From a virus (lineage: Duplodnaviria > Heunggongvirae > Uroviricota > Caudoviricetes), in IMG/VR virus record IMGVR_UViG_2522572021_000013: a stretch of 39,698 nucleotides of DNA. One strand, given 5' to 3'. Numbering within the stretch: the first letter of the stretch is position 1; each line of letters begins with the position of its first letter. The position numbers are program-made. This document shows, in pieces, positions 36,001 through 39,000 of this stretch.

Positions 36001-39000
36001 TTTGGCAATATGTAAACCCTGGCCGACACAGCCGTACTGCCCTTTGCTCAGGTCAGCCCTCGGATGATTCAGCGTACTCATATCCTGCACATCATGCAGA
36101 CAGTGGTCAGCCGGAATAATATCGTTATATCTGCAGGCAGCCCCGCCCGGCGTCACTGTACTGCGGCGCGCCAGCTGTTTAATGCGCGGATCCGGAGCAT
36201 CGTATGAATCCGGCAGCGGAAGCCCTTCACCGTAAGCCATGGCATTGGACTGCCCGGCCAGTACGATGACGTAGTACCAATCCGGCTCAGATGAAGGGCC
36301 GACCTGTGGCTCTCCTTCAATAGCCACCGCCTGCATCAGTGTGTACGGCGTAATGGCAACCGGTCCGCCGTATGGCTGCCAGCCCTCTTTCAGTTTGTGT
36401 GTCAGCTTTTCCGCAAGGTCTGACGGCGACGCCGCCCTGACAACATCATAATGTTTAATCGACATCGAATTTCTCCCGTGTAGAGGAACAGAGTTAAAAA
36501 GCCGGAATCAAATCGCAGGATGAACATCTGCCAGTGGCTGGTCGTAAAAAAAAGGCCGCGCCATGCGCAGCCGGAAATAAAGGGATAACGATGATAGTTT
36601 GAGAAAAACAGAAATAACACTTTTGTGGCAAAGCATGGTGCCGGGTGCCTCCCGGTGAATTCAGCCGGTGTCACTGAACCCGCGTCGGCTTGCCTATAAC
36701 ATAATAAATGCTACCCACACCAGTCGCCCCTCCGCACAGGGGGATTCACCATGCAGAAGTGTTTTTAATAAACAGCAAACAAAAAAATCAAGCATTATGC
36801 AGGCTGTTTCTTTTTATCACCGGCCACAGCAATACCACAATGCCGCAGACCAGCACCCCATCCGCCAGCACCGACATGATTCTGCTGGTGAAATCCACCA
36901 TCACCACCAGAAACAGCAGGAGTGCAGCCACAGCCAGGCGCAGTTTTACCGTCACAGGTGATTCTCCAGACGAAGACCCAGAACACCGGCAATCTCTTCC
37001 AGCACCTTACACTCTTCCGGCTCAATTTCGCCTTCGGCCTCCGCAATGGCCACCGCCACATCCAGCACATCTTCCGCTTCACGCGTATCGTGTTTCACAT
37101 CCTCGATCTCACGTAACGCCGCACGACGACCAATTTTAAAGTTCGTATCCAGCTGACCGATAATGGTTGCGCTCATCGCATTAATTTCTGACGTAAACGC
37201 GGACAGCGCTGGCTGATTACGCAGTACCTGTTCGATCTTCGCTTTCTAGGAAGCCTCACATTCACCATCTGCACAGGCCACCAGGTATGCGGCGTTAATC
37301 ACCGCCTGTGCCAGATCGCGTTTTTCAAACTTTTTAATTTCCACTGCCGCTCGGCGGGCTTTTTTACCAAAAATACCAAACATCGTGACGTTCCTTTGGG
37401 TGGGTGAGCCAACGCCCGGGAGCGATCTGCCCACAGAGAAAGTCACACTGACCACTCCGTAAGCTCACCCCCGAAAGGCTCTGTGGTTGATATGCGCCGG
37501 GCGTGGCGCGGATACAAAAAAGGCCGCCAATAGCGACCTCAGTTACGGGATTATTCTGGGGTTAAACGACTGTTACTCCCCCCAGACAAAATCATCACTT
37601 CCTGTTCGATGCGAGCCATAGTGAACCTCGTACTTATCTCCCATCTTTCTTGCTTCCGTTTCTGCGTCTTCCTCTGTCGCAAAAACCCCAACAAGATGCC
37701 AGGGCGAGCTTCTTACCACAACCCAACCTTTAACCCATCCTTTGTTGTCCTTATCTTCCATTAACACTTCAGAAACAAACTGAACCGCCCCGGGAATCCT
37801 GGAGACTAAACTTCCTGAGAAAGAGGTAAACAGGATGACTAAAAATACTCGTTTTTCCCCTGAAGTCCGTCAACGGGCAGTCCGTATGGTTCTGGAAAGT
37901 CAGGGCGAATATGACTCACAATGGGCGACAATTTGTTCCATTGCTCCAAAGATTGGCTGTACGCCGGAGACTCTGCGTGTCTGGGTTCGCCAGCATGAGC
38001 GGGATACCGGGGGCGGTGATGGAGGGCTCACCACCGCTGAACGTCAGCGTCTGAAAGAGCTGGAGCGTGAAAATCGTGAACTGCGCCGCAGTAACGATAT
38101 CCTTCGCCAGGCTTCCGCTTATTTTGCGAAGGCGGAGTTCGACCGCCTCTGGAAAAAATGATGCCACTGCTGGATAAGCTGCGTGAGCAGTACGGGGTCG
38201 GACCGCTATGCAGCGAACTGCATATTGCCCCGTCAACGTATTACCACTGTCAGCAACAGCGACATCATCCGGATAAACGCAGTGCCCGTGCGCAGCGCGA
38301 TGACTGGCTGAAGAAAGAGATACAGCGCGTATACGATGAAAATCACAAGGTATACGGTGTGCGTAAAGTCTGGCGTCAGTTGTTACGGGAAGGTATCAGA
38401 GTGGCCAGATGCACTGTGGCACGTCTCATGGCGGTTATGGGACTTGCCGGTGTTCTCCGGGGTAAAAAGGTCCGTACGACCATCAGCCGGAAAGCCGTTG
38501 CCGCAGGCGACCGCGTAAACCGTCAGTTCGTGGCAGAACGACCTGACCAGCTGTGGGTGGCTGATTTTACTTACGTCAGCACATGGCAGGGCTTCGTCTA
38601 TGTGGCGTTCATCATTGATGTGTTTGCCGGATACATTGTGGGGTGGCGGGTCTCATCGTCCATGGAGACGACATTCGTGCTGGATGCACTGGAGCAGGCG
38701 TTATGGGCCCGTCGACCGTCCGGCACGGTCCATCACAGTGATAAAGGTTCTCAGTATGTATCGCTGGCCTACACACAGCGGCTTAAGGAAGCCGGATTAC
38801 TGGCATCAACAGGAAGTACAGGCGACTCGTATGACAACGCGATGGCGGAGAGCATCAATGGTCTTTACAAAGCGGAGGTAATACACCGTAAGAGCTGGAA
38901 AAACCGTGCAGAAGTGGAACTGGCCACACTCACGTGGGTGGACTGGTATAACAATCGACGATTGCTGGAAAGGCTGGGCCATACTCCTCCGGCAGAAGCA

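Follow-up and report, generated by a model that had tools for sequence, protein, structure and literature searches.

A common amber allele in a TerB-like prophage gene of Escherichia coli O145:H28 RM12581

We analysed a stretch of 39,698 nucleotides (nt) from the virus record IMGVR_UViG_2522572021_000013, hereafter the window, which corresponds to positions 2741833-2781530 of the chromosome of Escherichia coli O145:H28 RM12581 and in which a TerB-like gene of a lambdoid prophage remnant is interrupted by a single in-frame amber codon. With good confidence, this gene is an ordinary prophage pseudogene, already annotated as such, and its stop a loss-of-function allele. Its pseudogene status is known from RefSeq; the addition made here concerns the stop, which is not a private mutation but an allele common in E. 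coli prophages that appears to recombine among them. As to how it reached this copy, the evidence tips modestly towards gene conversion from a paralogue that has since been lost or is missing from the assembly.

Translation of the minus strand from 37383 to 36952 gave a frame of 143 sense codons with one internal stop and a terminal TGA, running from MFGIFGKK through ECEAS, the stop and KAKIEQ to LENHL, and this translation revealed no second frameshift or stop besides the TAG. With Glu restored at the stop, the protein matches Pfam PF05099 over residues 26-138 (48.2 bits against a cut-off of 24.4, E=1.6e-12); it also matches PHROG 632, 'tellurite resistance' (E=6.8e-68), and contains no hydrophobic stretches. 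The RefSeq entry produced by PGAP, with RM12581 as source genome, labels the gene 'pseudo: internal stop'. The original prediction, made from the sequence by itself, had described a TerB-like open reading frame (ORF) continuous except for one TAG, and translation, the PF05099 match and the PGAP entry all uphold that description; the uninterrupted coding sequence expected of a functional PF05099 member is broken here by the TAG at codon 46.

Comparison with orthologues, proposed at the outset as the way to find the original codon, yielded GAG (Glu46). The stop is a G>T transversion on the coding strand, plus-strand position 37248 being A here and C in RM9872, UTME-9 and FWSEC0002. Both RM9872 and FWSEC0002 have GAG and the intact protein WP_000466924.1 at the same yehV locus, and so has every other O145 genome compared there apart from the outbreak isolates, which confirms, for this locus, the recent inactivation that had been suspected; UTME-9 carries an intact TerB at the equivalent prophage locus. 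The nearest relative is FWSEC0002, which shares an ISEc20 insertion with the window and lies one base (TAG/GAG) apart from it in 1,101 nt; this base is also the only difference within the gene pair formed by TerB and the downstream DUF3927 gene. Across 6 kb the two differ twice, at the TAG base and in a CCC/CC length difference within the ISEc20 transposase. At the yehV locus, TAG was seen only in RM12581 and RM13514, two isolates of the 2010 lettuce outbreak.

The residue lost is a conserved one. In 18 homologues, which reach down to 51% identity and come from E. coli, Salmonella, Klebsiella, Serratia, Pantoea and Erwinia/Salmonella jumbo phages, position 46 is always Glu; this residue is aligned to a Glu in TciA of phage P1 and pairs with a Glu of the D-G-x-x-x-x-E-E motif in the nuclear magnetic resonance structure of KP-TerB, 2JXU (E=6.5e-7). 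The protein has two acidic D-G-x5-E motifs (D39-G40...E46 and D/E117-G118...E124), invariant or nearly so in 17-18 homologues and with residues proposed as metal-binding; in the window copy the stop takes the place of the Glu in the first of them. The structural reading is based on the AlphaFold prediction for P0001, a homologue from the database with 96% identity (predicted local distance difference test score 87.8). According to this model the protein has the all-helical TerB fold, with six main helices; helix 1 is followed by a loop at residues 37-43 (A-D-G-E-C-E-A), helix 2 begins with residue 44, and the Glu46 position falls in its first turn. Foldseek placed the TerB-like structures 2H5N (probability 1.00, template modelling score 0.55-0.61) and 2OU3 at the top of the Protein Data Bank matches. 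A stop after 45 residues would leave helix 1 and the first DG loop, and would remove the second motif together with five of the six main helices. Because only one helix and one loop remain, sequence and model together indicate that the window copy could not give rise to a functional TerB protein.

The same amber allele is found well beyond this locus. With the TAG at its centre, a 57-nt query had exact matches in 537 complete E. coli records and matched 98 further records only at 95-99% identity, where one mismatch would score 98.2%; the idea of a private new mutation was dropped once these 537 exact matches were seen. The same 57-mer with GAG was exact in 57 records only. Copies with the TAG are annotated 'internal stop' in RM9872 at 1.398 Mb, in O157:H7 PV15-279, in FORC 064, which is not a Shiga toxin-producing E. 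coli, and in the potC prophage of FWSEC0002. The TerB gene is carried by about 805 of 5,426 complete genomes, at a median of four copies, and at least one TAG copy is found in roughly two thirds of these carriers, or ~10% of complete E. coli genomes. Orthologues with a natural stop at this position and a separate downstream gene had been named as the finding that would speak against an interrupted gene. The stop itself does recur, in the 537 records, but its copies are annotated pseudogenes, and no natural stop with a separate downstream gene was found among them. The TAG 57-mer had 0 matches in 50,697 phage records, a result that says nothing on the TAG in viable phages; only four phage records exceed 90% protein identity to TerB. 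A scan of GTDB species representatives gave one uninformative match, in a metagenome-assembled genome.

Most TAG copies are further damaged. A pattern scan of IMG/VR accepting either allele returned at least 120 copies, and the 120 matches listed, to which all IMG/VR counts in this text refer, comprise 65 TAG and 55 GAG copies. The 5' end was evaluable in 63 and 54 of these, respectively. A frameshift from A6 to A7 in codons 7-9 affects 26 TAG and 10 GAG copies; 29 TAG copies and 0 GAG copies are truncated at the 5' end, where they join a different antiterminator module; other 5' lesions account for 5 and 2, leaving an intact 5' end in 3 TAG and 42 GAG copies. A second disabling lesion of one of these kinds is thus present in 60 of the 63 evaluable TAG copies. 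Downstream, DUF3927 is truncated or frameshifted next to 17 of 58 TAG copies and about 4 of 48 GAG copies. We read the TAG as the signature of a module lineage in decay that recombination of prophages has spread widely. Across both alleles, the A6 run in GGT AAA AAA GCC is A7 in 36 of the 120 matches, so that the frame shifts after codon 8, and in 29 of the 120 the first ~17 TerB codons are replaced at the junction with an 822-nt antiterminator module. A natural amber polymorphism is familiar from rpoS(Am), codon 33, in K-12 lineages, where it permits restart and partial function. The TerB allele resembles it in that one in-frame TAG is polymorphic in natural populations while the gene is otherwise intact; unlike rpoS(Am), most of its copies listed carry further lesions and nothing points to residual function.

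Draft genomes bear a trace of the same polymorphism. A cluster of 97-residue 'partial' TerB proteins (P0095, 462 member sequences) starts exactly at Lys47, and the draft contigs behind it open with AG AAA GCG, that is, with the last two bases of codon 46. Draft assemblies break at the polymorphic first base of this codon, which is G or T between paralogues, and the TAG/GAG polymorphism is therefore a cause of contig breaks. These breaks fit, though they do not prove, the coexistence of both alleles within one genome in otherwise identical sequence.

The original prediction had offered, as its other explanation of the stop, a gene expressed only in an amber-suppressor background, and this part of it found no support. 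ARAGORN found no tRNA genes in the window and no CUA anticodon in the tRNA clusters of six paralogous or related prophages, the rest of the chromosome not being scanned; the clusters preceding paralogous TerB genes encode Ile2(CAU), Arg(UCG), Arg(UCU), Asn (GUU) and Gly (UCC), and the suppressor-dependent gene was rejected as a candidate for want of a CUA tRNA. Moreover, most TAG copies listed carry a frameshift or a 5' truncation, so that suppression could not rescue them, and with these population data no suppression is needed to explain the stop. We therefore regard function through an amber suppressor tRNA or programmed readthrough as scarcely credible. The window frame is otherwise intact on either side of the TAG, and the 97 codons past it are open in 57 of the 58 TAG copies that can be read to the stop; such an open frame is, however, expected regardless at 95-99% nucleotide identity, the second lesions of TAG copies are irreparable by readthrough, and DUF3927 decay is enriched beside these same copies. 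In addition, the residue that the common amber suppressors put in is Gln, Tyr, Ser or Leu and not the invariant Glu.

Hardly better placed is a split of the gene into two functional products, a 45-residue N-terminal peptide and a C-terminal protein restarted at Met70. This haplotype does contain an ATG-initiated ORF of 74 codons (37176..36952), and C-terminal fragments of this kind, called as phage genes, make up PHROG 3920 and 9865. Met70, however, is not preceded by a Shine-Dalgarno sequence, and position 70 is Ile in nearly all other TAG copies listed, leaving no conserved start past the TAG; upstream lesions bar the N-terminal peptide in most TAG copies, and the C-terminal fragment is predicted by the model to comprise only half of the helical bundle.

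Since the allele is common, its entry into this copy can be sought in the paralogues. A TAG copy resides in the potC prophage of FWSEC0002 and of many other O145 genomes: a 1,998-nt query gave a perfect match in seven O145 genomes and a match with at most one mismatch in at least 11. The FWSEC0002 potC copy equals the window over gene nt 97-173 and differs from it at nt 96, nt 174 and about ten further sites. A short conversion tract of 1-77 nt would yield exactly the observed pattern, the probable donor being a potC-prophage copy of the kind present in other O145:H28 strains. The chance that a random substitution in the 1,101 nt would recreate the common allele is only about 1 in 3,300, and for this reason we favour, if by a limited margin of confidence, gene conversion from a paralogue since lost or missing from the assembly.

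Several observations weigh against this conclusion. No TAG donor was found in the RM12581 assembly, so the donor would have to be lost or missing from it. The assembly contains three TerB copies, namely that at yehV (TAG), one in the serT prophage (1134908-1135339, GAG) and one in the Rac-site prophage (1758166-1758597, GAG). The search covered nine further RM12581 stretches of 37-50 kb, with potC, ompW, serT, serU, ssrA, dusA, ybhC, ynaF and the Rac site among them and one of the stretches free of prophage; as these gave two intact GAG paralogues and no TAG copy, a donor within the same genome was rejected. In the RM12581 potC prophage, Q and tRNAs lead directly to terminase, with no TerB module. 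A change of 1 nt by itself also cannot tell conversion from point mutation. The bases in RM12581 and RM13514 are not independent of one another, both coming from one laboratory that combined 454, Illumina and PacBio RS data with manual closure of repeats. For the reading of the locus as a whole, the late-promoter dependence, expression and function suggested for the intact pair are read from gene order.

An independent, spontaneous G>T at this site, with a real stop that does not descend from the TAG of other prophages, is the foremost alternative, and we consider it unlikely. It agrees with the single base separating the window from its sister genome FWSEC0002, with the failure to find a TAG donor in the RM12581 assembly, and with the haplotype of the window, since TAG together with Met70/Glu117/Cys126 was seen in no other copy among the IMG/VR matches listed. 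It would, however, have to recreate, at the chance given above, an allele present in 537 records in an identical 57-nt context, and in the nearest relatives there is a TAG paralogue that agrees with the window over the 77 nt surrounding the site.

Less probable again is an artefact of assembly or polishing, in which reads of a TAG paralogue missing from the assembly piled up here and flipped the consensus base. The RM12581 and RM13514 genomes were assembled from 454, 101-bp Illumina and PacBio RS reads, with automated repeat finishing by Polisher and dupFinisher and manual gap closure (PMC3893438, PMC4032123), and such a hybrid assembly of 2014 leaves room for this error. The potC and ompW prophages of RM12581 look collapsed, unlike those of FWSEC0002, having identical early regions and no TerB or lysis module; the sole other difference from FWSEC0002 in 6 kb is an indel in homopolymer length, and many phage genes in the window are annotated as 'frameshifted'. 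Against this, the potC-type copy has ~12 further differing sites within the gene, including positions 40 nt 5' and 38 nt 3' of the TAG, and none was flipped, although a mixed pile-up should alter several sites; the base also appears in both RM12581 and RM13514, though these assemblies are not independent. Because the site belongs to a repeat with several copies, in a hybrid assembly of early date, caution is advised before the base is used as an outbreak-specific single-nucleotide polymorphism.

Some features of the RM12581 prophages deserve mention in their own right. Its potC (L133) and ompW (L136) prophages encode the same early-region proteins and both run from Q through two tRNAs to terminase, with no TerB, esterase or lysis cassette; the potC prophage of FWSEC0002 (L135) has insertion sequence (IS) elements and a full TerB(TAG)-DUF3927-esterase-lysis module. 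Either recombination between prophages or a collapse of repeats in the assembly of 2014 accounts for this arrangement.

A further, more far-reaching proposal is that the amber at Glu46 is favoured and propagated among paralogous prophages by conversion, as an adaptive or conversion-driven silencing of TciA/TerB in lysogens. We hold this to be very doubtful. Were it true, DUF3927 and an adjacent STnc100/PasD-like small RNA (sRNA) would be kept, and the proposal would explain both why TAG is ~10 times commoner than GAG in the 57-nt context (537 against 57) and why it has recently appeared in a third haplotype, that of the window. For biology at large the pseudogene carries little weight, being one more in the decaying prophage of an outbreak strain; the TAG allele, which appears to move between paralogous prophages, lends itself well to use as a natural marker of gene conversion between lambdoid prophages.

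The downstream partner of the TerB gene is intact. A GTG-initiated hydrophobic frame at about 36787-36955, overlapping the TerB stop, had been put forward as a small membrane partner, and it proved to be a DUF3927 gene, annotated in RefSeq for RM12581 as WP_000216636.1, 53% identical to P1 TciB and in the same order and with the same kind of overlapping stop and start as in P1. Its GTG (36955..36953) overlaps the TerB TGA (36954..36952) by 4 nt, as GTGA, and a ribosome-binding GGAG (36967..36964) stands 8 nt 5' of the GTG. The protein matches PF13064 (62.3 bits, cut-off 25) and PHROG 1470, 'TciB-like' (E=4e-30), and has two hydrophobic segments, at about residues 6-22 and 27-47. In the intact locus DUF3927 is translationally coupled to TerB. 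In the window it retains its own ribosome-binding site and would lose the coupling, and it may suffer polarity from 291 nt of untranslated message. In two other RM12581 prophages, at ssrA (L139, 29874-30870) and ybhC (L141, 10592-11579), DUF3927 follows not TerB but a 744-nt hypothetical gene, WP_001302581.1, and the small membrane protein is thus joined to differing upstream partners.

Five nt past the DUF3927 stop begins a match to the STnc100 family of sRNAs (115.4 bits against a gathering threshold of 47, E=4e-26), followed by a terminator-like hairpin at 36572..36554 in the terminator scan. STnc100 has been linked structurally to the prophage sRNA PasD, which is located upstream of a sialate esterase gene (2026 preprint). 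The match may represent an sRNA derived from the 3' end of the TerB-DUF3927 transcript.

The closest known counterpart of the pair is the tciA-tciB(-tciC) operon of phage P1, found also in P7 (as terB) and D6, in which a TerB-domain gene is likewise followed by a small DUF3927 membrane gene. P1 TciA is 41% identical to the TerB protein of the window; the overlap of stop and start is TGATG in P1 and GTGA here, and both in P1 and in intact relatives of the window the pair adjoins phage tRNA genes. The lambdoid phage JLK-2012 is closer still, with an annotated tciA/tciB at 96.5% identity. Unlike the window, P1 has a third small gene, tciC, and its operon lies upstream of ban in a plasmid prophage, whereas the window pair occupies the late region of a lambdoid prophage, at the slot equivalent to stx, and its TerB member is inactivated. 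The P1 record labels the tci genes 'tellurite or colicin resistance or inhibition of cell division (by homology)'; literature searches found no experimental study of the function of tciA/tciB or DUF3927, and we know of no tested function of the P1 genes.

Likeness to TerB of the terZABCDEF operon (KP-TerB, 2JXU) is distant only: the two share PF05099 and an all-helical fold, and TerB-like entries head the structural matches. In contrast to the ter operon, the window pair has no terC, terD, terA or terZ neighbours, its partner is DUF3927 and not TerC, and what surrounds it, besides DUF3927, is a nanS-p esterase, lysis genes and IS elements. The 'tellurite resistance' label is inherited from the family and thus indicates no phenotype of the strain, whose true ter islands lie elsewhere, at serX and metX (PMC3893438 supplement). 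The TerB domain is still described as being of unknown function; a membrane association has been reported for it, and the defence systems Shango and Bunzi contain it, possibly for membrane surveillance (bioRxiv 10.1101/2022.05.11.491447). With these the window pair has the TerB domain in common, and it differs from them as a two-gene module of a phage late region with neither a helicase nor an ATPase partner. PADLOC models gave no match to TerB or DUF3927, and NCBIfam gave only a sub-threshold DjlA match for the window proteins.

Taken together, the window TerB is in all likelihood a dead copy of a prophage accessory ('moron') gene, which would make no TerB. Its intact counterpart would be soluble, all-helical and acidic, would contain a putative metal-binding site, and would be anchored to the inner membrane through the co-translated DUF3927 with its two transmembrane segments. 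We suggest that this protein would be synthesised at the late stage of infection, alongside the products of the esterase and lysis genes, and would act on the envelope or ion status of the cell or shut out competitors. Loss of this copy was probably tolerated, the prophage being already defective through its IS3-family element and ISEc20 and two intact TerB-DUF3927 paralogues being present elsewhere in the genome.

The remnant sits between btsS (yehU) and a truncated mlrA (yehV), is the 'Prophage 13' of Cooper et al. (PMC3893438 supplement), and is 100% identical in RM12581, the lettuce isolate, and RM13514, a patient isolate, both from the 2010 romaine-lettuce outbreak. On the minus strand its order is IS3, a 62-residue ORF, the TerB pseudogene, DUF3927, the esterase split by ISEc20, holin, lysozyme, Rz, terminase, head and tail genes, and nleA (Table 1). 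The intact order in UTME-9 and phage JLK-2012 is Q, tRNAs, small ORFs in some cases, tciA/TerB, tciB/DUF3927, the nanS esterase and S-R-Rz, and in intact lambdoid phages the TerB-DUF3927 pair fills the late-region slot that stx uses in Shiga toxin phages. There the pair is presumably read from a Q-dependent late promoter, as gene order suggests. In the window the IS3-family element has replaced this upstream part, so the prophage is defective and, to judge again from gene order, the pair would be without its presumed promoter. The homologue in UTME-9 of the small upstream ORF is longer and has tRNAs and Q ahead of it.

Table 1 Features of the TerB region in the window, in window coordinates.
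Feature	Position	Strand	Description	Basis
TerB-family (P1 TciA-like) pseudogene	36952..37383	-	143 codons + TGA, one internal amber	Translation, PF05099, PHROG 632, PGAP
Amber TAG	37246..37248	-	Codon 46; plus strand reads CTA	Alignments of relatives
Shine-Dalgarno-like AAGGA	37391..37395	-	7 nt 5' of TerB ATG	Read directly from sequence
DUF3927 (P1 TciB-like) membrane protein	36788..36955	-	Intact, 55 residues	ORF list, PF13064, PHROG 1470
STnc100-family (PasD-like) sRNA match	36597..36783	-		Rfam RF02076
Terminator-like hairpin + T-run	37520..37540	-	Between upstream 62-64 residue ORF and TerB	Consensus scan, pattern match only
Small upstream ORF (PHROG 4280)	37573..37761	-	Last phage gene before IS3 junction	
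IS3-family element	37835..39048	+	Replaces early region, Q antiterminator, late promoter and tRNA cluster; abuts truncated mlrA/yehV	Annotation
nanS-p-type SASA/DUF1737 esterase gene	33166..36465	-	Split by ISEc20 (34641..35836); intact in RM9872	Annotation

Further observations concern the decay of this and related prophages. In two RM12581 prophages, that of the window and the ybhC prophage (L141, 6993-10293), ISEc20 interrupts the esterase gene at one and the same point, which suggests either that a segment was copied from prophage to prophage or that the assembly duplicated it. The ISEc20 transposase of the window carries a 1-nt CCC/CC frameshift at about 34760 that is absent in FWSEC0002. 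Genes annotated as 'frameshifted' in the window are those for the tail-tip protein gpJ (9064-12542) and the portal (21357-23941) and a hypothetical gene (6053-6641), and their frameshifts come either from additional decay of the prophage or from homopolymer errors in the 454/PacBio RS hybrid assembly. At the yehV/mlrA site, the truncated mlrA beside the IS3-family element occupies 39082-39531, and the prophage also contains the type III effector gene nleA, at 4514-5755.

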